From: Larinioides sclopetarius
Taxonomy: Eukaryota
Direction: 5' to 3'
NCBI GenBank assembly: GCA_964023285.1
Contig: CAXIEN010000093.1
Coordinates: forward strand, 2,375,739-2,439,738
DNA: 64,000 nt
The notes beneath the pieces were generated by a model. That model made no database searches. It was not told the DNA's origin and saw nothing but the letters and a program-made list of their open reading frames with translations. The position numbers were made by a program, and so were the translations under genes. Shown one piece after another: positions 8,299-58,013 of this stretch (positions are counted from its first letter, which is position 1; every line of letters starts with the position of its first letter).

Positions 8299-9660
8299 AC
8301 TTTCTTCTATAAGAAGAAAGGATTGGAATCGTGAAAACTTTCGACCTCCGTTTTTTGATGGATTTACATGTTTTGTGAGGTCCTGAACACGATTCCACAA
8401 TTTTTAAAAATTGTGTGTCTGTCTCTGTGCTGTGTCTAACACAAATTTTGTGGGCGCACTAGTACAAAAACTACTAGACAGAATTTAATGAAATTTCATA
8501 TTTAGTTGTATTTTAACATAACTTGGTGCTGATTAGATTTTGGCGTAGATCACTCAACAGGTGGCACTGCTATTCTGTTTCTTCACGATTTTTTGTATCC
8601 ACTCTACTTCAAAAACTAATAGGAGAAATTCGATGAAATTTTGTATTTAGTTTTGTCTTGACTTAAATTAACGTTCATAAAATTTTTGTGTAGATCGCTT
8701 GACAGGTGGCGCTGATATTTCAATTTTTACTTTCTCGTATAGAGAAAGTATAGTAATCGTCAAAAAATTCGAACTCGAGATTTTGGCGAACCTCCACGTT
8801 TTAGATCTCCTTGAGTCCGAAAAACACAATTTTGGAATTATGTCTGTCTGTGAACACGATAACTCAAAAACTATTATAGCTACGAAGCTGAAATTTGGTA
8901 TGTGGTCTTTTTACATGATTTGTAAGATTCTATCAAATTTTGGGCAACTTCCGCCTGTCTGTCTGTCCGCGTTCATGTGAACTCAATAACTCAAAAACTT
9001 ACATAGCTAGATAGATAAAATTTGATACACAGTTTTCTCATCATAAATGCCTGTCCGTATAAAATTTTGGGCCAAATCCGTCAAAGGGCTGACCGTCAGG
9101 CGGTCTGTATAACCCCATATTTGCAAAATTTATAGCTCTTAAACCCTTTGGTCTACATCTATAAAATTTAGTATGACTTATGCTAATAAAAAGTGTAAAC
9201 GTGTGTAAAGATTTCGCCCCATTCGATTAAGTAGAAGGGGTATAATTCATTAACCAAATTTATAATACGCATGCATGCGGAGAACGTCGTTTTGTGAGCA
9301 AATAAAAGGGTTGCTATTAGGAATTCCTAGGTGGTTTTTTCTTCCGCTTTGGTTCCGTTTTTCTCCCTTTTGGTGAATTCTGATAGCGATTGTGTTATTT
9401 TAATCACGTGAAAATGACGTTTCGCGCATAGAGCAGATTCAAAATTTTTGTCAGGTTTATAGTTCTCACAGTCGGTGGATTTTTTTTATCAACGATGGAG
9501 TATAGGAAACGGAGAATAATTCAGGGGAACTATACGAGAAAGTTTAGGGAAGGCCACTTCCACTGGTTTCATAAATTTTTCAATATTTGTTTTTAGTATA
9601 TATCGGTTTTAATCATATAATTATATAGAAGAAAGTTTTGTGATGGCCACATCATTGTAG
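8299..9660 (+). mobile_element. Family-1 hairpin-initiated repeat, copy a. An 836-bp sister element is nested inside it at 8731..9566.
   Basis: The 5' end is ctactttcttctataagaagaaagga..gaatcgtgaaaactttcgacctccgttttttgatgg. Two internal subrepeats of about 110 bp each end in gatcgct(c/t)aacaggtggcgctg. The element resumes with tttcataaatttttcaatatttgtttttagtatat...tatagaagaaagttttgtgatggccacatcattgtag at 9567..9660. Confidence 0.7.
8731..9566 (+). mobile_element. Family-2, a diverged sister of family-1, nested inside family-1 copy a.
   Basis: It starts with its own hairpin tttctcgtatagagaaagtatagtaatcgtc and a 5' region collinear with family-1 (gaactcgagattttggcgaacctccacgtttt). It ends ctatacgagaaagtttagggaaggccacttccactgg. 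Inside are gtctgtctgtgaac...ctcaaaaact...gaaatttggtatg modules, which also occur at 4735..4935. Confidence 0.5.
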
Positions 9661-9938
9661 TTTCGAATTGCTTTGGCATCCTTTAATTTTCATTCGTGGA
9701 ATTTTTTGTTTTAATTATGAACACTTATTTTTAAAGTAAATTTAATTTATTATTAATTCTTGATTTTTTTTAAATATTGATTGAATTAAGTTAGAAATTT
9801 CATGCATCACAAGTGTTTTTGACAGTTTTAATTAATGATTCTTGGTAAATACTATGTAAACTTTTATTTATATTTATCCTTTTTCTATATGTAATATCGA
9901 TAAAAATCCAATTGCATAATTCTTTAAAAAAATTTTAG

Positions 9939-10100
9939 GTTGCTCTTTATAGCCGTCAAGAACTTCATATTAGGTCTGCTTCTAATTTCCTTTTGTCTTA
10001 TGCTGCTTACCATGAGGAAACACGACCATATTTAGAAAAATATTTTGAATCGTGCACAAGATTGCCTTCAGATTGGATGGAAGTTGCTGATTTGTATCAG
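9939..10100 (+). CDS. TROVE-domain (Ro60/TEP1-family) gene, internal exon (54 codons).
   Basis: The acceptor is aaaaaattttag and the donor is CAG|GTGAAT. The open frame reads VALYSRQELHIRSASNFLLSYAAYHEETRPYLEKYFESCTRLPSDWMEVADLYQ. The order of the following exons matches the TROVE domain of Ro60. Confidence 0.55.
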
Positions 10101-10862
10101 GTGAATACAGTTTCATGTATAATTTTTTCTTAAGTAATAATTAAGATTTGTTTTCTGTGAAATTTCCATTAACATTTGTGTCTTCTTGAGAGACAAATGT
10201 ATGTTTCGAGTATGCCATGTTTAATTACTGCAATTACATGCCAGTAGTTTTTATCTTCAGTCTAGCTTGAATCTGAAAGCTAAATGGCGAATTCAATGAT
10301 TTCATTGATAAATTAATTATCAATTATTATTAATTTTAAAATATCAAAGTAGTGACACTAAATAATTGTATTGTGTTTGAGCTCATTTTGGAAAATGTTA
10401 TTTTCTTGTATGTTTGAATTGATGAATGACACATTTTAGTACAAAAGCAAATGCACTTACATCTGAGTGTACTGTACAAACATAAGTCATTAAGTCTGCT
10501 GCTCTTTTGTGTCGATTCCTTAGGTTTATTTCAAAATTGGAATTTTTTTTAGCCTTTTAATAGAGTTTTTGTGCATGAGTTGCTGAAGCAAATATTCATA
10601 TTCGAAATAATTATTCATAACAAATTATACAATGTGATATTCAAGGGTTTTTTAGAAATAAAAGTGTTTTTGTTGAATTTCTATTCGTAATTGGTGAATT
10701 TTTGTTTCACATTGAACTCTGAAACAAAGTTTTCTCATTTTGCTTCTGATTTCTTCAGTATCCAGTGTTTGTTTCTTATTGCATTTGTTTCGAAGTTTTA
10801 AGGCCTTTTATCAGTTTTTAGTTTGATATGTTTTCATGCTTAGATCAAATTCTTTTTTGTAG

Positions 10863-11217: not shown

Positions 11218-11418
11218 GTATGTGAGATTTTATAGTTTAAACTAAAATAATGTGAGATTTTCAGTTATCTTATTTAGTGATTTTCACTCATTAAAATAAA
11301 ATTTGAATATGTCTTCAGAGAAAATGAAAGTTTTCCATTTCTTTGTTGAGTTAACTGCATTGTATTTATTTTATATTCACTATTGCATATGAAATTTATT
11401 CTTAAAATGTGCATTTAG

Positions 11419-11576
11419 ATACCCAGAAACTGCAGAAGCCTTTCGAAAAAGTAAGTTGCCTGGAATATGGGATTCCAGAAGAGCTGGACAACGAATGAAA
11501 CTGCCTGTACCCGAAACATGGGAGACACAGATATCAGCTCATGGAAATAAACCTGAAATTTGGGAACAATTAATAG
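11419..11576 (+). CDS. TROVE gene exon (YPETAEAFRKSKLPGIWDSRRAGQRMKLPVPETWETQISAHGNKPEIWEQLI).
   Basis: The acceptor is gtgcatttag and the donor is ATAG|GTACAG. The frame is continuous only when spliced to the previous exon (aa+a gives K). Confidence 0.6.
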
Positions 11577-12233
11577 GTACAGCATTTGTTGTTAATTGAA
11601 CTAAATTTTCCCAATACAAAATGCAATTTTTTGATTTTTTTGTTTAATATTTAGTAGTTTTAGAAATTATAAATTTAATTAATTAAACAATTTCGTTATT
11701 ATTTAGTATAAGCTAATTATTATTAATATAAATAATGTCTTGTTATTTATTTTTTTTAGTGTCCAAAGATATTATTTCTTTCGATGTGTAATTTTTTTTA
11801 CATCAGATAAAAAGGATTCTGGAGATTAGATTGGATTGTATCATTTTTATTTTGGCATTAATATTATGTAATTGATAAATTAATCAAATTCTTCTTCAGT
11901 CCTGATAATAATTTAATAAAAATTGTATTTTTGGAGCTATTTGGCTGTCTTTAATTATATGAAAAGTATATGCTGCATTAATGAGTATTTTCAATTATAT
12001 ATGTCAAAAATATGCACACAGTAAGTTTCCTTCTTATTGTTTTTTTTCTTGTTTTAATACCTAATTCTTACTAGTAGTTGTTCCGTTTAGGCTCAGTAGA
12101 ACCATTAATAGTTTATAAAAACTATAATTCCTTTTCATTTAATAAGAATTAATTAATGTTAGAATTTTTCTGTGGTACTAGTTTTCACATTACAAAGCTT
12201 ATACAATTTTTTATCATGCTTTTCTCTATTTAG

Positions 12234-12343
12234 ACCATTCTAAACTTCCGTACATGGCTATGCTGCGCAATTTAAGAAACTTGATATTATCAGGCATTTC
12301 ACAAAAACATCATGACAAGGTGTTGAAGCATTTAAAAAGTAAA
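12234..12343 (+). CDS. TROVE gene exon (DHSKLPYMAMLRNLRNLILSGISQKHHDKVLKHLKSK).
   Basis: The acceptor is ttttctctatttag and the donor is a perfect GTAAGT. The motif LPYMAMLRNLRNL corresponds to the Ro60 motif PLTALLRNLGKM, recalled from memory. Confidence 0.65.
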
Positions 12344-15188
12344 GTAAGTGAACTATATTTAGTTTTTTTTCCATTTTGGATACTTTTGTGATTTCATATT
12401 TTTTAGGTAAAATCAAAAATTGATGACACAATATATTTCACTATGATTACTTAATTATTTAGCAAAATTCAATAGTAATTTTTGCACTTGTTTTGGCATT
12501 TATATCATTGTGACACTAGTTGCAGAATACCTGATTCGTTAGATTCCTTTGGTTGCTATTTAAACCAACTGCACGCACACTCATTGACCTCATCGTTAAT
12601 TTGTAACAATTGTCTCCATGGTGTTTTTTGAGTTCACCGAAGAAGTAGAAATCTCATGCAGACAGGGACTTCCAAACATGTCAATAAAAATGAACAATAT
12701 TTGAATTAAAAATTTAAATGAAGTATAAAGTGACAATTGAGTAGAGCCGTAATGAAGGTGGAACATCATTACGGCCCTTCTTTCTTTAAGAAATATAAAA
12801 AAAACATTGTGAATATATCCTTAAAAGTGTGATTTATTGTTAAACAGGATAGAGCGTTTTGATACTCCTTTTAGAGTGTACTGTTACTATTTATTTTACG
12901 ACCATACAACTGCAATTGATTATGCTAATTAGTTGATAAAATTTGCATAACTGGATTTAGAAAGTTAATTATAGGAAAAAGGAAATTATATGTGCAGTCA
13001 AACCTTGGTTGAAGAGATAAAATCTTCCTTAAAGGTCTATCTGCAAGTATTTTCAAAGGTCTATCTGCAAGTATTTTCTCTATAGGAGTTGCCTCAAAAT
13101 CAGTTAATCATTTCTTGATATCCATATAATTATGTATTTATTTTTTTACAACAGTGCTCTGTGCACTGATTGTTAAAAGGAAATTAGTGAAAACCATTAA
13201 TCTATAACTAAACAGGGTAGGCTACTGAGAAAATTAAATAGTACAATCTTTAAACTTGAAGGCATTAAACCGCCTACTAGAAAAATACAACTAGAATACT
13301 AGTTCAATATGAATGTTAGAAAAAAATCATTCGGTAGCAACTTGCTGATTCACCAACCATTTTCATCAGTTTATAATCACACAGCAGTCATTTCTCCATC
13401 TGTTTTCTGTGAGTGAAGGTCTGAAGATTATACAGTATCTATTTGTGAAACGTCACAATCCACAGGAATCATCATAGATTAATCGGCGAATCAAAGAGAG
13501 AGCTGTCAACGTCAGTGAGCTAAATCAGAATTTGTAAAAAGGTAAAGATAGCAGGGTTCAAATGTTGATCTGTTTGCAATTTGATCCAGAATCGCTGAAA
13601 TACTCAAAGTTAAGAAATATATTTAAACAACGAGAAAATAATTGGCGGGAAATTCAAAATATGGGTGCAATATGCAACATTTTGCCATGCCTATATAAAA
13701 AAGATTCGTGAGAAAACTTGAAAGCGATAAAGAAATGAGATATGTTTCTAAATTTTAATTGATTCTTATTCTGATTAAGTTGTTATTAAATGTTGGAGTG
13801 ACTGGAGGCAAAGCAGGCAATTACGTGTGATCCCAAAGGATGTACATTAAGGGGAAAAAATCGCTTAATAGACAGAACACACAGCCCCATGTCCTTGTGC
13901 CTTCTACTGTCTGGTGGTCAAAATGGGTGAATGGATATGGTTCAGCTTAATAGACATATAAACTCCACAAAAATAACAAATAAATTTTGTTTCGTGCCAA
14001 TAATTGTTTTTACTGGGTTAGATTTCCCATAGTGTCTGCCTTGGATGCAATAATCAGAAGGCATGTTTGCATTGAGGAAATAACAAGCTAATAAAATATA
14101 TAAAGCTTATAATGTTAATATATACAGTTTTCAAAATGATTTTTAACTGATCATATAAAATGCTGTTTTTAAATTGCTATGCATAGACATTGAATAAAAA
14201 GACCAGTGCATTTACATTTCCCTCTCTACAACTTGAGCTGTTTTGCTCAGTAATGAATAAAAGCATTTGCTATTTCTCTCTGACTCTCTCAGCATAAATT
14301 ATGGGAAAATGAAGACTCCAGATTTTTTCCAAAAACAGTAATTCTGAGTAAATGATTACATTCACATTGTTTGATTTTTACATAATTACAGATAGTAGAT
14401 ACATAAAATATATTGTTTCTACTTTTATATATATGGATAGTTTACTTAGATGGCCTGAAATTCGTTAACAGAGGAATAGACTTCAGTGTTTGGTAAAATA
14501 ATGGGAAATGAATGTTTGGACAGAATTTATACTGCAATCTTAAAACGAAGTTATATATATTTAAAATCGATTTGTTAAATATGTTATTTCAATTTCAGTG
14601 AGGCAAATATGTATATTTAAATATATCTGAAGTTTAAAAATTCTCACCACGATATTAAGTTATATTCACAGATAGAACTTGCATATATTTGTGGGTAAAA
14701 TTTGTTTGACATTTAGAATACAGACATTAATTATACAATTAAGAAAAAAGGTGGAGGTGCCATCATATTGATGTCTTGCCCCATTAGTAGATTTACATCT
14801 GGTCGCCCCTAATTATATATGAAATGTCATTTTTGCTTACTATGTGACTCTTGATACTTTTAAAATTTACTTATTTTCTGTAATCTGTAGCAATCTTTTA
14901 AATGAAATCTTTAAAAATAACCACTGCGACAAGTCTCAGATGATATGGTTTGTCTACTTTACTATAAATAAGACATTACTTCCCCAACTATAGATCTCCT
15001 CATTTGAAATTATTGGCATATCACTATATACTTTGTATATTGTAGTACTGATTATTAACATTTAGTTTCTATTACATAATTGTTTCATTAATGTATTTAA
15101 TTGCTGACAAATGCTTGCATTTTTAAGTAACAAATATTATACAATAATATCAGTAATTAGTATAATGCATAATTTACTTTAAATATAG

Positions 15189-15349: not shown

Positions 15350-18300
15350 GTGAGTTGAGTTTATATATATTTGCTGAAATAAGCTTTTTTATACCCTTTA
15401 TAAGTGTCTGGTAAGTATACTTACCACTATATTCATTGTTTTCTAATTTATTTTTTAAGTTTGACATGAATTCTTGGCAGCTTTTTGGATGAAACAAAAA
15501 TTGATATGTTCCATTTCATTTTCTCAAACTATAGCCAAGTTACTTGATAATTAATTAATAATCAACAAAATTAATTTTATGGAATTTTCTAAATAAATCT
15601 CAATCCAAAGCCATTTTATTATAAAAATTGATTCTTTAGAAGGTTAACAATACACTTCCATGAAAAATTAATTAAATAACATTGTATTAAAAAAACAGAT
15701 TAAATTAATTTCGAAAAACTTTGAAATAAATCCACTCTAACAAAGTTTTGATGCAAGTGTGTGTATGAATTTCTGAAGTGTATTGAAGATTTTGCACATC
15801 ACTTTTGCATAAGTGAAAAGTGACTTAAACCTATAATGAAAATTCATTCACGAGGCATTTAGGATAACGACCAGAAATTGAGGAAGTAAAAGATATAAGC
15901 TTTTTTCCATTATGGCTATAAACACAGTAAGTTGATAAAGGATTTACAATCTTTATGAATGGTTTTCCTTAATTGTTTACATGCAGTTTTGTAAAAATAT
16001 TCTGGAAAATATGAAAATTTTCTTCAAAAATCCCAAATTTTCCCATGTTTTGCAGAACGTCTTTGAAATATTAAAATTTTACGGAAATATTCCATTAAAA
16101 TTTGAAGTTAATACTAGGAATATTATAGGAAAAATGAGAATTTATAGTAAAAAACTTTTTTTCTGTGCATGTGTTAGGCATAGTGTTGTTTTTGTTTCAC
16201 ATCTTCAAAGCCTGATTGAACAGCAACTTATGAAAATTCTAGTTGAGTACCATCACGGTTTGGAAAGATATCAGCATTGCAGTTAACAGATTTTCTGCTT
16301 CTCTCTAAGTGAAACAAAACAATGAGGTTTTTCACAAATTGCCATTTTTTAAACTTGAATTAACTAAAAAACTAAACTTGAACTTAAATTCAAATAATGT
16401 ATTTTATTTATAAATATGCCTAAGTATTAAGCATATTCGATTTTTATTAAATTCTGTAAAATTATTCGAAAATTCAAATTTAAAAAATATCAATTTATTT
16501 AAAAAACTTGTTATTTTGTTTCTGACTAGGAAGAATAGAAATTCTGCTCACGGAAATGCCAATATCTGTCTAAATCTTAATGGCATTCAACTTGAATTTT
16601 TATGTAAGTTGCCCTAAATATCTAGATTTGAAGTTATTGAGTAAAAGTTTTGCTCAATCTTGCAAATGTGCAGTATAAATTACTTACTAAAAATAATCAT
16701 GTTCCCTTAAATATTCAATCATTTTCTTCAAATTTGAATACAATGATTCTCTAACAAATTGTTAAATATTCTTCAAGTTTCGCATTGTTTGATTGAAAAC
16801 TCTACATGTTATAAACAAAAACATGCAGAAAAATTTAGGATTTTTTAAGAAAACATTTATATCTCCAGAATATACTTGCTCTTTTTATGAAACTGCATTC
16901 AAATAATGTGCTTATGACACAAAGCTATTGATGAATTTACAAGTTTTTATCAACTTTCTGTGGTAAGCCAAAATTTTTCTTTTTCATCAATTTCTTTAGT
17001 CCTCTAAATGTCATGACAGAATTCATCTCTGTAAAATATGAATTAGAATTTTTCTTTATATGGTTGAAATTCAAGGACAGTTGTTCGAGCTTTTCAAAAG
17101 GAATTCTACAAGTGTCCATATTCTTTTATTATCATATACAGGGTGCGTATGGTCATGGAAAGTGCTTAAAATGGCTTAGTTTTTATTTTTATTTTAGAAA
17201 AATCGTAAAAGTGCTTACTAATTATTCAAAGTTTGTATAAAGTGTTTATTCTTTTTCGTGGTACTTAAAGACTCATTAATTTTAACAATGAGTTTATGTG
17301 CAAGAATGTCACATAACTTTAACAGTTGATTTTCCACCATCCAAATAAATAGTTTCCAATGTAAGGTATGCTGTTTATGATTTCTGGATCTGTAAAAAAA
17401 AGAAAAAATAATGAATACTAAATTTTAATGAAAATAATTTTCTTTGATATTAAAGCATAGAGTTTTTTATGTTTATTCTCATGTAGAAAACAATAAATTT
17501 TTAAACTGTGCAATTAAATATACAATTTTAATTGTGAAATGTGCTTTAAGTTGTTTTTTAATAATTATTTTATGTATGAAAGTGATTTAGCATTCTAATT
17601 TTGTACCTCAATATGTTGTTACATTTGTATTTTCAGTTTTTCTGCATTTTGAAAATATTTTTCTGTGACAAGTTAATGAGAATATATTCAGTCATAATAG
17701 CTGTAAGATATATGCTAAATTTTTCTCCCATTATTTGTGTTTGATCAGCATTAAAGGTTTGTGAGTCCTTATTTTTTACTTTAAGATGCTTATAAAGTGC
17801 TTACTTTCCCCCTACAAATTTGAGTCCGCACCTTGATATAGTGTTTGACAAGTGAAACTAATTTAAGATTTTGTAAGGAAAGATAAATCCCTGTAATATC
17901 TGATAAGTTGGTTGTTGCTGTAACTAGTGAAATTCTTTATACCAGAGCAGAGCACTTCCATTATTGAACAAGTTTTGTTCTTATTATGATTTTTTCCCCT
18001 AGTCATTTAAATGGCCACTATCTGGACTTTATTTTAAAATATAATACTTGCTTTTTTTAATACTTTTTTAAGTTGTGAATTTGGAACTTAGCAACAACTT
18101 TCTAGTTCAAACAAAGCCATAAAAAAGAAATTATATTAAAAGGTTTTTTAATAACAAATTTTGAATTATGCTTTAATTACATACTTCAGACATGATACAT
18201 TCCCATAGAACGGCTGATTTCTGCTTTTTATATATCGAATTTTTTCATTCATAATTTTAGTTTATAAAATAGTTCTACAATATTTTTAATACCTCAAGCA

Positions 18301-18611
18301 CTTTTTGTATAAATTTATTCATTTTATTGATAAATTAATTATGCATTTTTATATCTATGCATTTACGTTTGGCAAGACTCATTATATTTAACGTTCCACT
18401 TTTATTTTATTGTTCCAAGGCTGTGTGTGTCATGTCTGATACTTTTGTTTATGAATGCATTTTGTGAGCATAGCTTGTGGAAGTTGGAAAAATATTTGTC
18501 TTAAAAAAGATTCAATATTTGAACTACACAATTCTTTTTTATTGCTTTTAAAGAAATTGCAATTTTAAAAATTGTGTGAGTTAGTTGGTAATGATTGTAA
18601 ATTTTTTCTAG

Positions 18612-18774
18612 AGCCAGTGATGTTTCAATGGATCTTGTTTCTGGTTATGAAGAGGCTGTTAGTGAAGCCCTTGAAATTTCTGCTCTTCATAATTTGCAGC
18701 CTATCCCTGGAAAAAGTTTGGTAATTTGTGATATACTTTTTCCATCGTCATTAGAGAAGGGGAAAAAGACCAAG
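18612..18774 (+). CDS. TROVE gene exon at the TROVE/vWA junction (ASDVSMDLVSGYEEAVSEALEISALHNLQPIPGKSLVICDILFPSSLEKGKKTK).
   Basis: The acceptor is attttttctag and the donor is AAG|GTAAAA. The segment PGKSLVICDI corresponds to the Ro60 segment TGKRFLLAVDVSASM at the start of the vWA domain. Confidence 0.6.
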
Positions 18775-18917
18775 GTAAAAATACTTGAAATATATTCTTT
18801 TGATTTTTTGATTTTGTTTTTCTTGAGTAAAAAAAAGCAAATCAGTATGCTTAATAAAACCTGCTATTAAACCAAAAAATTACATTGCTTGCATACACCA
18901 TCTAATGATATTACAAT

Positions 18918-20057
18918 TTAACATCACAAATCCGGAGTCATGGGACTTACGCATTTCTGGATTTGAGATAATTCTGAATCTTGGAACATTTCAATATTAA
19001 GAAGGAAAGTAAACATCATAAAATTGATAATTCATTTTAAATTAAAATAAATTTATTTATGACTTGTTTTTTTCCATTTATGAACATAATATTGTTTTTA
19101 TATTAATTGAAACACTTTTACAAAACATTTAATTTAAAGTGAGTTATTTCATTAGTTTTGGTTTTTATGATTAAGTAACTTCTCTTTTTTTTATGCATTG
19201 CCATTATATCTAACTCTGAAATAAATTCTCTTTGCTCAAATTCTTTTATTGTGGTATGCAAAACTTCCACTAATCTGTCGATTGGCATTTTATCTTCTAC
19301 TTGTGTTTCTCCTACACTATAACTTCTATTGGACACCAATATTCACCAACATGCTGCATATTTTGGCATTGATGAACTGGCGCCCTGTCAGGACTTTATC
19401 GTTGAACTTAAGTACTTCAAAGGTGCAATCTTTGGCAATTTTTTGTCCTCTCTATTCAACTAATTCAAAATTTCCGCTTTTTCTTTTGGGATCAGAATTC
19501 CTTTGAAATTGTTCTTTGTTCTCATGGAATATGGTTGCCGGACATAAATTGTGCCAAGCATTTTTAATCGTCAGGGTTTGGTATCCCATTTATCAAGTAG
19601 TATATCATCTCAGATAAGAGCAGTTCAACATTTGCAAGGGCTATTTTAGAAGCTGAAGCAAGACAGAAGCTGATAAATTTCTACAATATTCCATTCGTTC
19701 TAGGCAAATCCTCTTTGTGAGCCGGAAAGGAATTTGTGTGTGCATCTTTTTTGATAATATTTCTTACATTCTGGTTCTGGGCAATTTCATTTTGAGTGCT
19801 AGAGAGGGGAAAAAGAGGAAGATTTATTGTTACTCTACTAGTCATTACAATAGACCCCTGAATACTTTCATCGGACATCATTGTACCCATGATTGAATCT
19901 TCTCTTTCCTTGGATGGTTGTGATTGGTTTTTGCTGACTCTGAGCGCCAATTTGTTAGATAAAAGTTGGGATTCTCTGGGGTAAAGGGGTCGAGGAACAA
20001 AAAAGGTCAGGATTTTGGATCATTTCAAAGTCTGGATGTCTGAATTTGTGATATTCG
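18918..20057 (+). mobile_element. Family-4, a roughly 1.14-kb dispersed element, copy 1. It lies in the TROVE gene intron.
   Basis: Collinear with 25870..27003 at roughly 75-80% identity. The termini are (t)cacaaatc... and ...gaatttgtga, read as inverted ends. It carries decayed minus-strand ORFs (19118..19339 and 19681..19950). Confidence 0.55.
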
Positions 20058-20099
20058 GCCGTATTGATTGAATGCATAGACAAGAAATTGGTTTACCTG

Positions 20100-22154: not shown

Positions 22155-22310
22155 ATTTATAATCTTTGCATCATGATGGGACTCATGTGTCTGAAAGCTT
22201 GTGAAGATTGCAAAATGAATGTGATTTGCGGCAACTATTCAAACAAATTTGAGCTTGATGAGGATGTTTCCTTTTGTCAGTCAATAAAGGATGCTTGTGC
22301 TCAGTATGAA
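22155..22310 (+). CDS. TROVE gene exon, C-terminal part of the vWA domain (IYNLCIMMGLMCLKACEDCKMNVICGNYSNKFELDEDVSFCQSIKDACAQYE).
   Basis: The acceptor is ttttttctccag and the donor is GAA|GTAAGC. The motif LCIMMGL...MNVICGNY matches the Ro60 motif LIVCGMTSNGF...MLDMCGFD, recalled from memory. The roughly 100-aa vWA core that should lie between the previous exon and this one was not found. Confidence 0.55.
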
Positions 22311-22403
22311 GTAAGCTTTTAAATGTTTTATAAGACAATATCAATTCTGAGGTAGTTTTATTTTCTTCATTTACTTATTCTGTAATTTTAAATCAGCCTT
22401 GCT

Positions 22404-27003: not shown

Positions 27004-27032
<29 letters not shown>
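27004..27032. repeat. (TA)n microsatellite of about 14 units.
   Basis: tatatatatatatatatatatatatata, directly after family-4 copy 2. Confidence 0.9.
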
Positions 27033-27036
<4 letters not shown>

Positions 27037-41867: not shown

Positions 41868-41915
41868 CCTTTTTGCAATTCCAATACTTTCTTCTTATAG
41901 AAGAAAGTAAAAATT
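41868..41915. repeat. Solo family-1 terminal hairpin (ccaatactttcttcttatagaagaaagta..ttgg).
   Basis: A palindromic copy of the family-1 5' terminus with no element body attached. Confidence 0.4.
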
Positions 41916-47900: not shown

Positions 47901-49289
47901 GTGAGTTTTAGAAGCTGTTTCTCATCTCAAAAAAGACAACCGACTATATTAAGGTCAAGCATGCTTGTCACCAAATGGTAGTTTGTCATACAATAGTTCT
48001 TTAAATGTTTATATTTGATGTTTTAACATATAAAAATTCAAAATGGAAAATATTTTGGATTATAACAAAATAAATTATTAATTATTAGTTGTATTGGGAA
48101 TCACAATATACACATGAATAAATTTTAACTCTTTCTCAGCTTTTAGCATTGTTAATAATAATAAAAAATTTTAAATTTACAAATAAAGTTTTTGAAGTAT
48201 ACATATAAGATTTGAAAGAGATTAATTGTTCTTTTTATTGCTTGAACTATTTATTAAATATTCCATCATTCACTATAGTTTGTTTGTGATGCATTACATA
48301 TTTGTAATAAATCGCAACTTTGTTTGAATCTAACAAATATAAGTTCTGACCGATTCTCTAGATTTTATTATTGTTAACACATGTGCAAGAATCATGTTGC
48401 TGATGTTTATTATTATCTCAACAGGAGGTAGATTAATATATTGCAAACTATTCTGCGTGCATTATATTAGTGCTGAAGAGTTTTTGAAAATGATATTATC
48501 CATGGTAGATCAATGATTCAAGCTTGAATTTTGCCGCAAGATCATTTAAAAACTGTTTTATTCTGCTAGTTTCAAATGTAATTGACAAAATTTAAAATTA
48601 CTAGTAAGATTTCACTTATAATACATAGTTTATTTCCATTTAAAATTAATTATATAATGCAAAGTTTATGTCATCTACAATAATTTGATGTGCTCTGTGT
48701 ACCTCAAGTTATAAAAAAAGGTAAATATTAATTTAGTTTTAACATTTACTTTGTAGAATTTTAATCATACAAATTGTGAATCTAACTTCACCAAAAATGT
48801 TCGTGATAATTATACTTGCATATGATAATTGTGCAGATGGAAGTTAAAAAACAAATAATTCCTTCTTATTATCTTTTAGAACATCCTTATAATTATAGTT
48901 TTCTCTCCTTCTCAGTAACTTTTCAACTATACCAAAAGGCAAAAGTATAAACAGGATGTGTTATATATATATAAACTAATTTGGTGTGACCATCTAAAAT
49001 TTTTTATATAATTGAGATGCTTTCGAGTCTATAGATAACACTGATTTTTATCCAAAACATAAAACATTATTAAACTGCATCAGACTTTTTTCTTATATTT
49101 TAAGCAATGCTGTTGCTATGCTTTATGATAGCAACAGAGAAATGCTTATAGCAAAAATTGTGGAAATGTATAGCAGAGCCCCCTGTTAAGATACACGCAT
49201 GCAAACTGAATCAAAATAACTTCGTATACTTTACATCTTATGAATTAAATGTTATGCAATTTCAAAGCATAGAAACCGAGATATACTAA

Positions 49290-49757
49290 TCACAAAAGCT
49301 GCAACGGAATAGCAACGCCACCTGTTGAGTGATTTACGACAAACTCTCATTAATCAGCATTAGTTATTGCTAAGGTAAAACTAAATGTAAAATTTCATGA
49401 AGTTCTGCCCAGTAGTTTTTCGTCTAGAGTGGTCACAAAATTTCACAAAAATTGTGGGAGAAACAAAATATAAAAAGCGGAATAGCAACGCCACCTCTCC
49501 AGCTATCTCCATCAAAATCTAATCAGTATTAAGTTATGTTAAGGTGCAAGCAAATATAAAATTTCATGAAATTCCGTCAAGTCCTTTTTGCGCTACCGCG
49601 GCCACAAGTTTTGTGACACTCACAGACATTTTCCAAAAATAGTCAAATAATGTTCAGAACTTCACAAAACGTATAAATCCATAAAAAAAAACGGAAGTCA
49701 AAAATTATCAAGATTTCCCAATATTTTCTTCTCATATATATCTTATAAGAAAGTAAA
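49290..49757 (-). mobile_element. Family-1 repeat, copy f. Reverse orientation, more diverged, and it lacks the canonical 3' tail.
   Basis: The reverse complement shows the hairpin end actttcttataagatatatatgagaag and both subrepeats (caacaggtggcgttgctattccg twice). Confidence 0.55.
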
Positions 49758-49919
49758 AATTCTCGCTTTCATATATTTTCGTGAAAGAAGTTCTTTCACA
49801 TCATTGTCTATCTTTTATTTATGACTAATAGACAAAGCTGGTCATTTATTATTTTAGAAGATTTTCTACTCTGCAGAGAGTTCTGCATCAAGGCTTTTTA
49901 AATTGTAAATACGGAAGTA

Positions 49920-49942: not shown

Positions 49943-50384
49943 TTTTGATTTAATCAAATTAATTTTCAATGACTTTTTATGCTACAGCTAAAGTAATTAA
50001 CACCCGAAAGACCATTTTTATTATCCAAGATTTTTATTCCAGTGCTTAGCTAAAACTTTGTTATTTAGCTCAACTTGATCAAAATGTGGGAGTTTTCATG
50101 CAGTTACATATTTTTAAACATTACAAAACCACAGCAAGCTTATATTAAATAACATTGATTTTTATTATTTCCAGTATCTAACCATCCTTCTGAACTTAAA
50201 ATTTTCTGTCATTTTTTGACGAATTTTCGAAATTGATATGAATATCAAGCATTATAAATAAGTTTGTGACTTACATTGGTATAAAATCCCTATATTGTTA
50301 TTTAGGTGCTTGATATTTAAACTTTCAGTGAATTTTCTAATTTGGTTTGTGATAAGCAGTTACTGAGGAGAGAAGATACAATTT

Positions 50385-50708
50385 TTATGCAATAATCACA
50401 ATATTATAAAATAATATGAATGCGGTGCTCAAGAAGAAATGGAGTAATATCCCAAATGATGCTTTTGCAGATGTACCACTTGAGAAGCAATCGAGATCTG
50501 TTTTAAATACTGTTATAATTGATCTATTGTTCATATTAACACATATAGCTTCACGTAAGTCATGTAGATAAGTTTCTTCGCATATCATTTCTTCACACCG
50601 AGTTTCATATTCATATTCTTTTATCCATTCCCATATCCAAGAAAGTTCACAGTTACAATTTAGTTGATTTCCAGTTAGCTTCAAATGCTTGAGGTGCTTT
50701 TCTGGTAC
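50385..50708 (-). CDS. LRR protein gene, terminal exon. Encodes the LRRCT cysteine cap and a C-terminal GPI-signal-like hydrophobic tail, ending at a stop codon.
   Basis: A minus-strand acceptor tttttttttctttttacacag precedes GTACCAGAAAAG. The translation VPEKHLKHLKLTGNQLNCNCELSWIWEWIKEYEYETRCEE...C contains the NxLxCxC...W LRRCT pattern. It then reads FSSGTSAKAS plus SFGILLHFFLSTAFILFYNIVIIA and a stop, which is a small-residue omega region followed by a hydrophobic C-terminus with no cytoplasmic tail. The exon is phase 0, consistent with both candidate exon-2 donors. Confidence 0.65.
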   Translation of the reverse strand, partial: VPEKHLKHLKLTGNQLNCNCELSWIWEWIKEYEYETRCEEMICEETYLHDLREAICVNMNNRSIITVFKTDLDCFSSGTSAKASFGILLHFFLSTAFILFYNIVIIA

Positions 50709-52109
50709 CTGTGTAAAAAGAAAAAAAAATTATGAGTAGTTATAAATTTAGTAAAAACAGAGTATATCAAACTTATTGGAAGTCAACTGGCTTGTTTAAT
50801 GGCATAACATAATAAACGTGTTTAGTATAATAAACGAACAATCTGTCATATGCATGCTGTTTTCATATTTCAGAGATAAATATAACATGGCACATTTATA
50901 ATACTGTTTGGTTCTTGCATGCCTTAAGAATTGTGGAAGCCCTTTCACAACATGGCATCATGGAACTTGATTTTCACCATAATTAAGTTTATGATTAAGA
51001 GAAATCTCTGCTCAACATAAATCATGATAAAGGCTGTCTAGAACACAAAATATCCTATTAAAAGCTGTTAACTCACTAAGAGAAGATTTCCATGATATGA
51101 CTGCAGAAGGTATCGAAAGAACTACTCTTTAAAAAAAGATATTGACTTGTTGAATTTGGTAAAAATTATCTTTAGAATGCTAAGTGTGATTTAAGAGATG
51201 AGAGTTTGGCTGAAAATAAAGTTAAGCACCTAATTATAAAAATGTAAAGAAAGCTATGAATTTATCACAGCTGCTGTGTATTTCTGTATGATAATATACT
51301 ACTTAAAAAAAATTACAAACTATGCAAAAGAACTTCATAGTTTTTTAGTCCTGTTTTCAAAATTTATATACAAAAAAATAATCTGCACATTTGGGCAGGC
51401 AGTTTAAAATAAAATTTTTTAAAACAATAGGTACATAATAAAAGTGCATAATAAACGTAAAATAAGGAAATGCTGCTAAAGATACAAAAGAAAAGATATC
51501 TTGTCTAAAGAAAAATGTTTTTCTTTTAATGATTTTCAATAGTGATGACAAAGATGTCATTATTTTACCATTTTAATACACTTCTAGTTAAAATTTCTTT
51601 GATAAAGATATTTTTCTTCATTATGAAAATAACATGTGTTTAGTTATTGGATCCCCCCATTTTTTGAACTAGCTAATTGTTTGCACAATACAAATTCACA
51701 TAACATGCTATTTTTTACTATCCTCATTATCGTGATTCATGCTTAGTTATAGTTATGTAAATAATTATGTATTAATATTAAAATAAATGTCACCATCAGA
51801 TCATAGATCCTATATTAAGTTGTAAAGATAATTAAAAAATGAATATATCTTCTTGATATAGTTTTGTTTAGATTTCACGGTATAAGGAAGTATAAAATCC
51901 ATTATTACTAAGCTCATTTTTATCCCATACAAAAGAGCTCCTAGTAAGTTTTCTAACTTAATTAGCATGCTATATTTTAATGAATATATGCACGAAGCTT
52001 CAGCTGTTTTCTGAAATAATTTTTTTTCTAATATTAATTCATTGAATCGTTTATCTGTTTATTTATATTTAGAATTTTATTTACATATCGTTTGAAATAA
52101 AAAAATTAA

Positions 52110-53214
52110 GGATGTAACGAATATTCGGCAATTATTCGGTATTCGGCTTTTTGCCAAATATTTGGCTGCCGAATACTAAGCAAATATTTAGCTGAATATT
52201 TTCAAGATGGTAATTTTTTGAAAGTATTAAATAATAAAAACATTTCAGAATTATATATTTCATTTCATTCATTTTTTCTTAAAAAAATCTAGCATTTACT
52301 CAGTTTTAAGTTTACATATATATATAATTGACATATTTTAACATATATTTAAAATTATGAAATATAGTATATAGCACATAAATATATCTAATAATTTTAT
52401 ATGTTTCTTATGACTGTAAAGCCTACAATTATATTAACCAAGAGATATTTTGAGGAGTGCTAAATATATATTCAGTGAAATAAAATCAAGGTATTTTTAA
52501 ATATGTATATTTAACAATGATTATATTGGAGAATTACATTTCAATATATTGATTTACAAAAAAATTCCTAACATTCAGTTTTAAAGGGGAGAGTTAGCAT
52601 TATTAAGTTAAATAACTTTTAGTCCTGTAACTGTAGATGTGGTTTATAAACCATATATATAATAACGTACTCGAAGTTGAAAGGTCAAAGTAAAGGAAAG
52701 ATGTTTGACTGAGTGGTAAATAGAAGTGAAGAAGAATTCGAATATGTTAAAGGAAATGACTTAAAATTTTGACTTGGAGAAAAGCGATTTTTCTATATTT
52801 AAAGGAAAAGGCACGAAGGATGACAAACAAATTTTTATTTTGTTTAGATTAATAATTTTTCTAAAAAAATTTTAAAATCTTAAATATATAATCTAATTAA
52901 TGTATAGGTAAAATTATGCTATTATAATTTATTTAGATTCGGTGAAGTCACATTGTCTTATTCTTATAATTAAAGTGTTTAAAATATATTTAAAAAATAC
53001 ATCAAGGTGCTAATATTTAATAAAACCAATAAAAAAATGAAAAATAACTTTATTAATCATTGATTTTTTATTTAAAATTTCAGGAATATTTCATTTGCCA
53101 TAAAAAAAGGGAAGTGTTTTTAAAAAATAGATATTCGGCCTGGTTTTTGGCCGAATATTCGGTATTCGATTATTCGCGTGCACGCGCGGCCCCAAATCAC
53201 TATTCGTTACATCC
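52110..53214. mobile_element. A 1.1-kb non-autonomous TIR element (TIR GGATGTAACGAATATTCGG), copy 1. It sits in LRR gene intron 2, about 45 bp from the donor.
   Basis: Perfect 14-bp inverted ends ggatgtaacgaata / tattcgttacatcc. Subterminal ccgaatattcgg palindromic motifs are repeated at both ends. There is no transposase ORF. Confidence 0.6.
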
Positions 53215-53258
53215 CTATAAAAAATTATCAAAATATTTGTAGTAAAAATCTACATTAC

Positions 53259-54050
53259 CTCTCTTTCTGTTGTGTATAACTTTTCAAGTGTCTGCAACTT
53301 GTTGTTTATAAATGCTGTCGTAAAATTCTTTACTTCTTTCATATTTTCAAAAACTTTTTGGGGAAATCTAGTGATGTTTGAATTTCGAATATTCAAGTTT
53401 AGAGTATGACTTCGAATGGCAGAAAAAACTGACTCATCCAAATATCTCAAATTATCACCTTCTAAGATGATAGATTTTAATGATTTAGGAAGGTCTCCAT
53501 TGAAAATTCCATCCAGTCCATTTTCTTGAACGTGCAAATGTATTTCATGTATTCCTTGGTTTCCATGAAACATTTGAGATATGTTGGTGCTTCTTCCTGT
53601 GTAAGTATCAAGTTCAATCTTTTTTAATGCTGTTAATTGATGGAAAGTATCTTGATCAATTTCTTGTAATTTTAAATTTTTTATGAACAGTTCCTGCAAT
53701 CTTTCCATGTTCGTAAAACTGTTGTTTGATAGTTTTTGAATTGGATTCTTTTGCAAATATAAGCATTTTAATTGTTGCAAGTTTGACCATATGTTGTTAT
53801 GTGTATTCAACAGTAGATTATTAGATAGATCCAAAATCTGAATTTTCTTCAGTTGTTCCAGCGTTTCTTGTTCCACTGTTTGTATGCCGTTGGAACTCAA
53901 GTTCAACATTAAAATGTTGCACGACGACAGCATTGGGATTATTTTCAAGCTCGTGTTTGCTAAATTGAGTTCCTCAAGGCTATTTGGTAAGTTATTAGCC
54001 ACCCATGCTGGAAGTTCCTTTATTGAATTGTGAGATAGATCCAGAGTCAT
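53259..54050 (-). CDS. LRR protein gene, exon 2 (further LRRs). The donor is ambiguous: GTAATG at 53258, or alternatively GTAAAG at 53333.
   Basis: A minus-strand acceptor ttttttttctcgttttcag lies immediately before ATGACTCTGGAT at 54050, and the frame is phase-compatible with exon 1. The ORF 53250..54050 is entirely LRR (LDLSHNSIKELP..., LDLSNNLLL...). Two candidate phase-0 donors lie near the ORF end. Confidence 0.7.
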
Positions 54051-54878
54051 CTGAAAACGAGAAAAAAAATCAATCTATGGAAATAATTCATAATTTTAAA
54101 AATAAATCTATGAAATCTATGGGAGTGCCTATTTTTGTATTTAGTCAATATTTAATTTTTACTGAAATTGAAGAAAAAGGGAGGGAGTGGCGGAATTCTC
54201 CATTAAGGAAAGAAAACTGACTCTGTCAAGGCAATTTTTACGCAAAGCAAAACTCACGTTTTTCTATCGAAAAACAGCTTACTTTATTTATAAATCTGAA
54301 TTGCACTTAGAAAACAAAAAAACTATTTTTAAATTAACGAGTCTAAATATTTCAAACAATTATAATTTTTTTTATATTAATAGTTTCTGAGTTATTTATT
54401 GCAAGTAATTTAAAGATTAAAAATTGCAATAAAGTCTGAATAAAAAATCATCTTAAATAATTGCTTTAAACTAACTTGGAAATTAAAGAGAGGTTCAGAC
54501 CTGCCAAGATTGTAATACCTCAACTTAATCATTCCATTTTATTGATTGTTAATTTAACAAGCGGTTTTATATTTTAATTTGTTTAAAGAGAGCAAATTAG
54601 TATGTTTTTAATACCGATAGGGTAATTTAGTTTTATTTGAGACAGTATTTTACGATAATCAGAGTTCTTAAAAAATCCTACACTGTGTTATTTTTAAATC
54701 CCGTCCTAATAAACTATATCCAATTCTTAAAGTTTGAATTTGTTCTATAGTTTTCATCCTTTGTTAATTTGATAACTATTTTGCTATGATTCCCTTCTCC
54801 CAAAGGTTCAGTGTTTTTTTTTTCTTCAAGTTTAGATATATTTGTGAGGCTGCTAAAATTGAAATCAACTATACTTAC

Positions 54879-57473
54879 TAGATTTGGTAGTTGCAATTCT
54901 TCCGCTGAGCTAGGTAGAATCAGTCTGTTACGGGAAAGACTCAGGTATCGTAAACTTTGCAGTGATGTAATGCTGCTGAAATTAAGCGATTCTATTTCAT
55001 TTCCAGTTAAATCAAGGTACTGCAATGTATCTTTGATATGGAATATGGAATCTTCAGGGAATTCTTCTAAGTTATTGAATGATAAATCTAGTTGTTCGAT
55101 TGTTGTAGCTTTAAAAATATCTCCTAGTATCTGTTCCATCTCATTGTAAGCCAATGAAAGTATTCTTAATTGCTTTTGTCTCTCAAATAAATTTTCTGGT
55201 AGATTGTTTAAGTTATTTTTTGATAAATCTAATATTTGTATAGATCGTAGACCTTTAAATTCCTCTTCCTCTATTATTTCAATCTCGTTATTTGAAAGGA
55301 TTAGAGTCTGTAGATGAGCCAGATTTGTAAATGCTTGGGTAGTTAAATTTACCAATTTATTATGGCTTAAATCTAGGACTGTAAGTGACAGCCTTATTGG
55401 ATCTAAGTAGTTGGTATCCAAATATGATATATTGTTATAGCTAAAATTGAGATGCTTTATGTTGCTTGAAGTATGAATAACTGTGTAATTTCCTGTTAAA
55501 TTCTGAATGTTGTTATGATCTACATCTATTCTTAAAGTGGACAGTCTTCCTACTTGGTTAAAAGCTTCTAAGTTGAAAGAAGATAGCTCATTATATCCCA
55601 AATTTATTAGTTGAATGTTTGGCAAATTTTGGAATGCTTCATTATCTATAGTTTCAATGGAATTCCCTTCTAGACGAATAATCATTACGGAGTCTAAATC
55701 GAGAAAAGCGGATTTTTGTATGGTCTCAATTAAGTTATCATTCAGTTGCAAATAGATCAGATTTCTCAAATTTCGAAAGATGTGGGATTTTAATACGCTA
55801 ATTTTGTTAAATGCTATTTTCAGATAAGCAAGGTTTGGATTATGCATATCATTTACTATATTCATATCTAGATCCTTCAATTCATTATGATTTAAATTTA
55901 AATACCTTAAATTTTGCGACGACGAAAACGAATTTTGTGGCAAATATTGGATACGATTGCTACTCGCATCTAAATACTCCAACTTTGATAGAGAATTTAA
56001 TGCTTTGTATGGGAATATTGATATCTTTAAAGCATTATGCAAAACAAGTTTTTCTAATGAATGCTTTACATCTCTAAAAGTGGTATTTCCGATTTTTGTT
56101 ATGGCATTGTGGGATAAATCTAACGATTTTAATCCGCTCAATCTGTGAAATGCTCCATTTTCAATAACTTTAATCGAACTTTTTGTCAGGGATAGTTTTT
56201 CCATGGAAGGTCCGACGTTTTGCAAATATTCCGAGTTGATAACTGATGTTTGTTTATTGAATGATAACTCTCTTATGTTTGGTAAATATTTCATGCTTTC
56301 TTGTGACAAGCCGTTCATCTTCGACCCAGAAATATCGAGGTATTTTAAAGGATTTCCGCAGTACTTAATGTCTTCCGGTGTAACTTCCTTTATAGAATTT
56401 CCAGCCAGCGATAATTTAGTTAATTTCGTCAATGGTAAAATAGGGAATTCTTTTATGTTATTATAGCTTAAATCTAAAACTTGTAATGAATGCGTTGAAC
56501 TAAAAAATGCATTTTTTGTTATTTCTGATATTGAACAGTAAGGAATGTAAACTTCAGTTGTATTGGCTGTCAGGAAAGTGTCATTTACTGTTGTAAGTGG
56601 ATTGCCTTTCAGAAAGATACGATTTACTTGATTGAAAAGTCTGAAACTTTCTGCTGTTAATTCTTTTATAAGATTGTGTTCGAGATGCAGCTCATCTAAA
56701 TATATGCGACTTCTTATTTCCCTTCCTTCAGATATAGTAGAAATCAAATTTTCGTTTAAGTTTACGATTTTAATGTTTTTAAAACTAGCCAATGCATTCA
56801 ATGGTATTTGCTGAAGCTGATTACCCATTAGATTTATATGCTTTAAATTATTCAATCCTCCATGAAAAGTTATATCGTCAATTGAAATTATAGAATTGTA
56901 TGCCAGATTCAAAAATTCTAAGGATATCATATTCCGAAATGCGTCACTTTGAACCTGCATTAGAGCGTTTTGAGATAAATCTAGAACCTTTAGACTTGTA
57001 CCCAAATTGCGAAAATCATCTGTGTGTAAGAAAGCAATTTTGTTATCCGCCAAATTTAAATTGCTTAGTTTCTCTAAATTCTGCATTGCTTCTTTTGGTA
57101 TTCGTATTAAGTTATTGTGTCTTAAATCTAGAATAGATAATGTTTTCTCGAGTCCTGCCAAAGCATTGGGTGGTAAATCTGTGAGCAGATTATTGTTAAT
57201 CTGAAGTTTCCAGAGTCCGGTTCCATTTAAACTATTATCCTCTAGAAAACGCAATTTGTTATCTTTAAGACTCATAATGTAAATTGCAGAATTATTGATT
57301 TGAGATGGAACAGTCATTAATGGTATATTATGGCAGCATACAGAACCCAAATCTGGACCTCCATTGGAGCATGTGCATAAAGGGTTGAATGAGCATGGCC
57401 GATGTTGTTCTTTCAATCGGGAATCCACATTTGTGAGGAAAAGTAGGAGACAGAGTTTATCAAAGAATTTCAT
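54879..57473 (-). CDS. LRR protein gene, exon 1 (865 codons). Encodes an N-terminal signal peptide, an LRRNT cysteine cap and a long run of leucine-rich repeats. The architecture is chaoptin-like.
   Basis: The ORF 54714..57473 starts with M and a hydrophobic leader (MKFFDKLCLLLFLTNV). The motif CSFNPLCTCSNGGPDLGSVCC is LRRNT-like. It is followed by about 35 repeats of LxxLxLxxNxI/L. An in-frame GTAAGT donor (plus-strand acttac at about 54873-54878) ends the exon in phase 0 after the codon for L in ...ELQLPNL. The exon length of 2595 nt is a multiple of 3, consistent with the ORF frame. Confidence 0.8.
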
Positions 57474-57544
57474 CTGGAAAAAAAAAGATTATTCAACGTT
57501 CTGGTAAAAATATATGCAACGATATATATAATTTTAAATATAAG

Positions 57545-58013
57545 TATACTTTTTTATTTTCTTCTATAAGAAGAAAGTATTGGAATCGTGAAAATTTTCG
57601 AACTCCGTCTTTTGATGGATTTACGCATTTCGGGGGGCCCTGAATACGAATTCACTATCTTTTGGAAAATGTCTGTGTACTGTGTGTAACACGCATTTTG
57701 TAGGCGCGCTAGCGCAAAAATTTCTGGACAGAATTTTATGAAATTTCATATTTAGTTGTATTTTAGCATAAATTGATTCCGTTTTTTCACGATTTTTTGT
57801 ATTCACTCTACATCAAAAACTAATGGGAGAAATTTCATGTTTAGTTTTGTCTTGACTTAAATTAATGTTCATAAAAGTTTTGTGCAGATCGCTTGACAGG
57901 TGGCGCTGCTATTTAAATTTTTTGAAAATTTTTTCAATATTTGTTTTTAGTATATCTCGGTTTCAATCATATAATTATATAAAAGAAAGTTTTGTGATGG
58001 CCATATCATACTA
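57545..58013 (+). mobile_element. Family-1 repeat, copy e. It lies 70..540 bp upstream of the LRR gene ATG.
   Basis: The 5' hairpin is ttttcttctataagaagaaagtattggaatcgtg. The 3' end is atataattatataaaagaaagttttgtgatggccatatcatactag. Confidence 0.7.

Follow-up and report, generated by a model that had tools for sequence, protein, structure and literature searches.

Two related repeat families with the architecture of non-autonomous Helentrons in a 64-kb window of the spider Larinioides sclopetarius

Introduction

What kind of element is the hairpin-headed repeat that recurs through a 64-kb stretch of the genome of the spider Larinioides sclopetarius (assembly GCA_964023285.1, contig CAXIEN010000093.1, positions 2,375,739 to 2,439,738; hereafter the window, with positions counted from its first letter)? 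An earlier sequence-only reading described this repeat, which we call F1, as a dispersed, non-coding, non-autonomous mobile element, and this description is borne out here. The same reading left the architecture of F1 without a class; we found that it matches the published plan of HINE/DINE-1-like HLE2 elements feature for feature (PMC2374699, PMC4067079, PMC7492417, PMC11417382). F1 and a second family nested in one of its copies, F2, are in all likelihood (a probability of about 85%) two related families of non-autonomous, Helentron-type rolling-circle elements (HINEs, DINE-1-like, HLE2) in an araneoid spider. Elements of this class are already well known from flies, mites and oysters, and the result is of low surprise.

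In Drosophila DINE-1, Yang & Barbash (PMC2374699) described 13-bp subterminal inverted repeats (subTIRs), of which the 5' copy lies 0-2 nt from the end and the 3' copy well inside the element, together with a partial inverted repeat (IR) beside the 5' subTIR, a GTCY microsatellite, central repeats, no open reading frame (ORF) and insertion at TT. A stem-loop lies a few nucleotides past the 3' subTIR and shows compensatory sequence differences between species (PMC2374699). Thomas et al. (PMC4067079) tied the class to Helentrons and reported variable strings of T at the boundaries, with the target site unmodified, and Vojvoda Zeljko et al. (PMC7492417) described oyster HINEs with matching substructures and central repeats of 140-180 bp. 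In the HELIANO work (PMC11417382), HLE2 is defined by inverted repeats of 12-16 nt, a stem-loop past the right repeat and T-T insertion. A high rolling-circle/Helitron content has been reported in Araneidae (PMC8693713).

Results

F1 is a dispersed, non-coding family with a nested relative

Copies were delimited by self-BLAST, MAFFT alignment and profile searches with nhmmer. F1 consists of six non-coding copies of 0.46-0.78 kb, flanked by unrelated DNA at their different sites, and one 5' fragment; F1 and F2 together cover 4.5 kb, or 7% of the window (Table 1). The 25-nt palindrome TACTTTCTTCTATAAGAAGAAAGTA was found, with up to three mismatches, at 8298, 22423, 37751, 40393, 41885 and 57555, and gave 9 matches over both strands against 0.00 expected (100 shuffles). 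Folding of this palindrome (-10.4 kcal/mol, z = -7.5) agreed with the perfect 5' terminal hairpin reported earlier. The short-form copies are 84-88% identical to one another, and two copies (40389-41423; 48976-49759, minus strand) form an older, long subfamily in which about 210 bp are added ahead of the 3' end.

Palindrome matches, self-BLAST and profile searches showed that every F1 copy listed in the sequence-only reading exists, with some corrections of detail. The reverse copy placed at 49290 spans 48976-49759, about 780 bp; the first copy, at 8299, is split by the nested 838-bp F2 (8729-9566); and the copy at 40388 is split by a TTAA-flanked, piggyBac-type MITE (a miniature transposable element with inverted repeats). 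The solo hairpin noticed at 41868 is a 43-nt fragment of an F1 5' end (41870-41913, minus strand). The piggyBac-type MITE, about 300 bp long, has two copies that are 94% identical and follow the form TTAA/CCCTTTA...TAAAGGG/TTAA; the one at 40497-40800 (plus strand) lies inside F1 copy 4, where TTAA is duplicated, and the one at 59450-59753 (minus strand) has lost the last GGG/TTAA. In F1 copy 2, the 5' arm is partly duplicated at 22403-22422, a 13-nt internal duplication by which the arm is present twice, 20 nt apart. A variant 5' arm, ACTTTCTTCTTTC, is common to copies 2 (22403-22422) and 3 (37748-37764).

No F1 or F2 copy contains an ORF of 110 aa or more. A Pfam search of stop-to-stop frames of at least 55 aa, over the window minus the region of the chaoptin gene (54-57 kb), returned only the TROVE domain of a TEP1-like gene; the frames of the chaoptin region carry Pfam leucine-rich repeat (LRR) families. 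Used as a protein query, an F1-derived ORF matched only three 'unnamed protein products', all of L. sclopetarius, at 81-88% for the two that were scored. Scans for F1 gave 0 matches in viral contigs and 0 and 0 in prokaryotic genome contigs. Metagenome contigs gave 24 matches to an F1 18-mer, which we attribute to chance because each is only about 25 nt long. An exact-sequence literature search with the F1 termini and the module motif found no paper.

Co-varying terminal repeats enclose central tandem repeats

An F1 unit starts with a T run, the 5' subTIR ACTTTCTTCTATA, one base, the IR GAAGAAAGT and a conserved block of about 95 nt. A (GTCT)n-like microsatellite of 7 to 27 nt and two tandem modules of about 145 bp occupy the middle, and the right part consists of an oligo-T tract, a right block of about 60 nt, the 3' subTIR TATAGAAGAAAGT, TTTG, the stem-loop TGATG-GCCA-CATCA, TACTAG and Ts. 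What had been called a terminal hairpin is the 5' subTIR plus the adjoining IR, which lies 1 nt 3' of the subTIR and forms the hairpin with TATAA as its loop; the two internal modules are central tandem repeats of the kind usual in HINEs. Their length had been put at about 110 bp, and Tandem Repeats Finder (TRF) gave a period of 145 with 1.8 copies instead. Each module holds two conserved boxes, CAAAAACTAnTnGnnnGAATTTCATGAAATTTnATATTTAGTT and GTAGATCGCTnnACAGGTGGCGCTGCTATT, and a block resembling DINE-1 block A2 is part of the tandem repeat unit itself. F1 has only two repeats, to which the long form adds a remnant of a third.

The conserved 5' body and the 3' end ...TATAGAAGAAAGTTTTGTGATGGCCACATCATACTAG, with its complementarity to the 5' arm, are as previously described. 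The complete 25-nt palindrome occurs at the 5' end only, and the 3' end carries a single arm. The 5' and 3' subTIRs are complementary at 13/13 positions in F1 and at 14/14 in F2 (ACTTTCTCGTATAG and CTATACGAGAAAGT). The 3' subTIR is followed by 24 (F1, conserved) or 23 (F2) nt up to the element end, and in both families a stem-loop with a 5-bp stem and a GCCA loop begins 3-4 nt past this repeat. The elements terminate in CTAG in four F1 copies, in the mutated forms GTAG and TTAG in two, and in CTGG in F2.

F2 repeats the plan of F1 with different letters: subTIR and IR, two microsatellite-led modules, 3' subTIR, stem-loop and an ACTGG end. Between the two families the subTIR, the IR and the 3' subTIR are altered jointly, the F2 IR GAGAAAGT co-varying with its own subTIR, and the 3' stem changes from TGATG/CATCA to GGAAG/CTTCC around an unchanged GCCA loop. 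When the 3' stems were aligned, 93% of the cells were paired and 2/5 pairs were compensatory; among the five better-preserved F1 copies, changes in the stem-loop sit in the loop or yield G-T. Because the subTIR, IR, 3' subTIR and stem co-vary, we argue that the termini are probably under selection for pairing or recognition and are not accidental palindromes.

A second, long imperfect hairpin was considered in block A1 (GGAATCGTG...CACGATTCC around GACCTCC...GGAGGTC). The prediction holds for copy 2 alone (22451-22525), the sequence being shared also by copy 1 (8326-8400), and this hairpin is probably non-functional because it is lost in the other copies and in F2.

Insertion into T-runs occurs without target-site duplication

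F1 and F2 are inserted precisely in T-runs and without a target-site duplication (TSD). All seven complete elements have a T before the first A and another after the last G, mostly as part of a run of 3-6 Ts; at least 4 Ts lie upstream in 6/7 and at least 3 Ts downstream in 6/7, and no further duplication of flanking bases was found in any of the seven. F2 interrupts the oligo-T tract of F1 copy 1, which becomes colinear with four other F1 copies once F2 is removed. These four copies serve as paralogous empty sites, with a T-run of 8 Ts in the presence of the insert and 5-8 in its absence, and they fix the F2 ends as T(n)/ACTTTCTCG...CCACTGG/T(n). The 5' hairpin and the ...CTAG end mark the boundaries, as the sequence-only reading had supposed. 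The case that it named as refuting, a conserved block that is a mere internal fragment of a larger Helitron, does not hold, the copies being complete with both termini.

A cut-and-paste MITE with subterminal inverted repeats and a TT or T-rich TSD would likewise be small and non-coding, with inverted repeats and Ts on either side, and such an origin was once considered for DINE-1 and discussed by Yang and Barbash (PMC2374699). However, the F1 repeats are not at both extreme termini: about 24 nt separate the 3' repeat from the tip of a conserved end with a structured tail. The numbers of flanking Ts are moreover unequal and variable between sides, so there is no fixed TSD, and later work linked the DINE-1 class to Helentrons (PMC4067079). 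We therefore consider a MITE very unlikely.

Stem-loops near both ends, dense copies and internal repeats could instead bring to mind a short interspersed nuclear element (SINE)-like retroposon whose terminal stem-loops are recognised by the reverse transcriptase of a long interspersed nuclear element (LINE), an idea that was raised and dismissed for DINE-1 (PMC2374699). F1 and F2 lack a tRNA, 5S or 7SL head (in the window, ARAGORN gave 0 genes and Rfam 0 matches at gathering score), a tail that is A-rich or made of simple repeats, and a TSD of variable length, and their ends carry perfectly complementary subterminal repeats; this origin is barely credible. The readings of F1 as a long terminal repeat (LTR) element or a segmental duplication were rejected on the grounds given against SINEs, MITEs and canonical Helitrons. 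On this evidence, the earlier exclusion of TIR-MITEs, SINEs and LTRs stands.

F1 and F2 show the sequence features of HINEs

The features that characterise HINEs and DINE-1-like elements were all found in F1 and F2: a 5' repeat of 11-16 nt at the end or 0-4 nt from it, with a complementary, internal 3' repeat; a second IR adjoining the 5' subTIR; a short stem-loop a few nt 3' of the 3' subTIR; T-T or T-rich insertion without TSD; a GTCY-type microsatellite in the left block, with central tandem repeats; and no coding capacity. At the level of sequence this list is complete for both families, an autonomous partner being the one remaining criterion.

The 3' end also brings the canonical Helitrons (HLE1) into view, whose non-autonomous members depend on a Rep/helicase without endonuclease and have a 5' TC, a 3' hairpin with CTRR and insertion between A and T. 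F1 and F2 are similar to such Helitron-N elements as members of the rolling-circle superfamily without TSD: past a short 3' hairpin stands ACTAG in F1 and ACTGG in F2, in agreement with CTRR, and without exception a host T comes next. An end of this kind, ...ATACTAG before TTTT, is also that of proto-Helentron-Pi (PMC4067079). In contrast to HLE1, the 5' end is T(n)ACTTTC and not TC, the preceding base is T and not A in 7/7 elements, and F2 entered the middle of a T-run and not an A-T junction. Furthermore, co-varying subterminal inverted repeats of 13-14 nt are a hallmark of HLE2 and absent from HLE1 (PMC11417382). A canonical Helitron is thus unlikely, and we retain the assignment to Helentron-type HINEs.

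A profile of DINE-1, made from 11 Drosophila consensus sequences (supplement of PMC2374699) and run with nhmmer in a 128-kb search space, matched both F2 modules (8842-8905 and 8950-9025; E values of 4.5e-7 and 8.6e-6). After removal of the microsatellite columns, an A2 core of about 50 nt scored 18.2 bits (E 1.2e-4), against 10.1 bits for the best of 100 simulated windows. In F2, the block past the GTCT microsatellite resembles DINE-1 block A2, TGAACnC..CTCAnAnACTATnAnAGCTAnnAnnTGAAATTT. This similarity of about 50 nt between fly and spider suggests a cis-acting function or a shared origin. The marks of DINE-1 proper, an A1 core of about 90 bp with (TA)4 and subTIRs of the TATACCC type, were not found; therefore, F1 and F2 are DINE-1-like and not members of DINE-1.

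F1 modules carry a CTCF-like motif

The second box of each F1 module, a block GATCGCT(C/T)(A/G)ACAGGTGGCGCTGCTATT that is among the two best-conserved module parts, holds AGGTGGCGC, the strong core of the Drosophila CTCF consensus (PMC1904468, Holohan et al.). Allowing one mismatch, AGGTGGCGC has 10 matches in the window against 1.1 expected, seven of them exact and three with one mismatch, and all lie in F1 modules, two per intact F1 copy and in one orientation. One motif pair is situated some 80 bp away from the start codon of chaoptin, and TEP1-like introns hold others. The D. ananassae DINE-1 consensus independently carries CCGCTAGGTGGCGCC, and no paper linking DINE-1 with CTCF motifs was found in the library searched. 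Chelicerates have CTCF. CP190 is missing from them. CTCF is described as conserved across bilaterians in PMC7021899 and PMC4208683.

These matches raise the doubtful prospect that, with the spread of the abundant F1 family, paired insulator sites of the CTCF type, as predicted from the motif, have been scattered over the spider genome. Just as well, the box may serve transposition as a cis-element or be simply inherited sequence. If the insulator interpretation were true, F1 would be an arthropod DNA-transposon counterpart of the SINE-B2/CTCF expansion in rodents.

The host locus and its other repeats

The window is AT-rich animal DNA, with a GC content of 25-34% across it. An open frame of 919 aa at 54714-57473 (minus strand) belongs to chaoptin, with 82% identity to Nephila pilipes and 65% to Stegodyphus, and the exons of the TROVE-domain (TEP1-like) gene span about 9.9 to 22.3 kb on the plus strand; chaoptin adjoins such a gene in N. 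pilipes too. F1 copies 1 and 2 lie inside TEP1-like introns in sense orientation, and copies 3-5 are intergenic. Copy 6 had been located 70 bp upstream of the ATG of an LRR gene; it is indeed close to the conserved ATG of chaoptin (57473, minus strand), but its 5' end is 76-82 bp upstream, and it points away from the gene.

A block at 61797-62006, 4.3 kb upstream of the chaoptin ATG, is 82% identical to N. pilipes and overlaps the annotated gene start there (position 10001 of the N. pilipes locus, L001). This block may be an upstream first (5') exon, or else conserved upstream sequence. Because it could be an upstream exon of chaoptin, F1 copy 6 may be intronic rather than promoter-located. 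Searches of the orthologous N. pilipes locus (28.9 kb) for F1, F2 and DINE-like sequences gave 0 matches each; the locus offers neither an orthologous empty site nor a sign of the F1 family.

At least five other families of dispersed repeats, with identities of 68-90%, are unrelated to F1 and F2 by profile search. The window also contains a 19-bp tandem repeat at 4528-4596 (3.7 copies, 96% matches) and a (TA)21 microsatellite at 27005-27047.

Table 1. Positions of F1 and F2 elements, their parts and other features of the window.
Feature	Position	Strand	Details
F1 copy 1, 5' part	8298-8728	+	subTIR/IR hairpin, block A, GTCT microsatellite, two ~145-bp modules; broken in oligo-T tract; 5' profile E 3.9e-36
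F2, related HINE nested in F1 copy 1	8729-9566	+	838 bp; 5' ACTTTCTCGTATAG and IR GAGAAAGT; ends CTGG
F2 GTCT-microsatellite/A2-like modules	8842-8905 and 8950-9025	+	
F2 3' subTIR	9530-9543	+	CTATACGAGAAAGT
F2 stem-loop	9548-9561	+	GGAAG-GCCA-CTTCC
F1 copy 1, 3' part	9567-9660	+	block B, 3' subTIR, stem-loop, terminal GTAG (mutated CTAG)
F1 copy 2 (reference copy)	22403/22423-22940	+	5' subTIR 22424-22436; IR 22438-22446
F1 copy 2, modules	~22560-22705 and 22706-22851	+	
F1 copy 2, 3' parts	22904-22940	+	3' subTIR 22904-22916; stem-loop 22921-22934; CTAG 22937-22940
F1 copy 3	37743-38285	+	longest (GTCT)n microsatellite, 37865-37891
F1 copy 4, long subfamily	40389-41423	+	~210 bp extra before 3' subTIR; split by piggyBac-type MITE at 40497-40800
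Solo F1 5'-end fragment	41870-41913	-	43 nt; T-run, subTIR/IR hairpin, first ~15 nt of block A; E 9.3e-9
F1 copy 5, long subfamily	48976-49759	-	old, degenerate; 69-76% identity to other copies
F1 copy 6	57550-58014	+	internal deletions of 46 bp and 10 bp
F2-like degenerate relic (probable)	4740-4925	+	two A2-like modules; termini not recognisable; 74% to F2 over 103 bp; weak nhmmer matches 4747-4803, 4883-4921
AGGTGGCGC matches	8559, 8704, 22680, 22824, 38024, 38169, 40951, 57898	+	
AGGTGGCGC matches	49315, 49488	-	
TROVE-domain (TEP1-like) exons	9939-10130, 11393-11596, 12182-12388, 18601-18755, 22130-22319	+	Pfam TROVE; syntenic with N. pilipes
Chaoptin (LRR gene)	50381-57473	-	exons 54714-57473, 53250-54050, ~50391-50730
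Other dispersed repeats	3662-3845 / 7489-7672; 18912-19981 ~ 25862-26515 ~ 27844-28634(-)		
Other dispersed repeats	27151-27670 ~ 32604-33350 ~ 41715-41832; 16094-17014 ~ 36463-36987; 52124-53140 ~ 59012-60270(-)		

Discussion

The closest match in plan is DINE-1/INE-1 of Drosophila. Both have a 13-nt subTIR near the 5' end with a partial IR, a variable GTCY microsatellite, tandem repeats in the centre, a 3' subTIR inside the element with a short stem-loop past it, a single 3' arm and TT or T-rich insertion, without TSD or ORF. However, the subTIR sequences are unrelated (ACTTTCTTCTATA in F1, TATACCC... in DINE-1), the 3' stem has 5-6 bp here and 7-11 in DINE-1, and F1 and F2 end in CTAG/CTGG, have the A2-like block inside the repeat unit and reside in a spider.

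HINE-Mo of the mite Metaseiulus occidentalis and HINE-Cq of Culex (Thomas et al. 2014) likewise come from arthropod hosts, one a chelicerate and the other a mosquito. They share with F1 and F2 variable boundary strings of 2-5 Ts, a 5' subTIR region that is palindromic, a 3' palindrome close to the end, tandem repeats in some copies (up to about half of the element) and an unmodified target site. HINE-Mo differs in that an identical short palindrome (12-15 bp) is found at both ends and the IR and core are reported absent. In the Pacific oyster, Cg_HINE (Vojvoda Zeljko et al. 2020), like the bivalve pearl/DTC84 elements, has a subTIR of 11-12 nt and an IR of 7-12 nt that are 1-12 nt apart, a GTCY/GTCK microsatellite, satellite-like central repeats of 140-180 bp with two conserved boxes, a right flank of about 60 bp with subTIR and palindrome, and oligo-T targets. 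Its arrays are longer and also exist as true satellites, whereas F1 has only two repeats; no satellite array was seen in the window. The F1 and F2 subTIRs have no sequence similarity to those of any listed HINE family.

Several observations weigh against the assignment of F1 and F2 to Helentron-type HINEs. Pfam detected no autonomous Helentron and no Rep, PIF1 helicase or endonuclease remnant within the window, and we infer the tie to a transposase from architecture. The CTAG/CTGG end is a trait of canonical Helitrons (CTRR) that is missing from Drosophila DINE-1, and the full DINE-1 profile did not detect the Drosophila A1 'core'. The 3' stem is short (5-6 bp) and by itself no more stable than shuffles (z -0.6 to -1.7). 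The sample comprises eight insertions and one empty-site comparison, and the exact nick positions, as well as the membership of terminal Ts in the element, are ambiguous because the targets are T-runs. Finally, F1 copies are 12-16% diverged from each other, which gives no sign of current activity.

On the model established for Helitron-like elements, F1 and F2 would be mobilised in trans by the HLE2 Rep/helicase, possibly with an AP endonuclease domain, that an autonomous Helentron would encode at another place in the genome. The HUH Rep domain would nick the left end, the helicase would unwind one strand in the 5' to 3' direction, and the 3' subTIR with its stem-loop would act as the termination signal; a single-stranded, perhaps circular, intermediate would then be joined between two Ts. 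The 5' subTIR may pair alternately with the adjoining IR, forming a local hairpin, or with the 3' subTIR, which would draw the two ends towards each other, and such alternate pairing would account for the co-variation of the three sequences. The central repeats would be cargo of the sort commonly carried by HINEs.

In spider repeat libraries, members of the Helentron/HINE class are frequently filed wrongly, as MITE or 'unknown', and the outcome of this analysis is mainly one of annotation: about 7% of the window consists of a repeat that is assigned, with the confidence stated above, to this class. The assignment would extend the full DINE-1 architecture of 5' subTIR and IR, GTCY microsatellite and central repeats to spiders, beyond the mite HINEs, for which the IR and core were reported absent. 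The A2 similarity between fly and spider and the CTCF-like motif add a modest further value. If the motif were bound in vivo, F1 would provide a system for the transposon-driven spread of insulators in a chelicerate.

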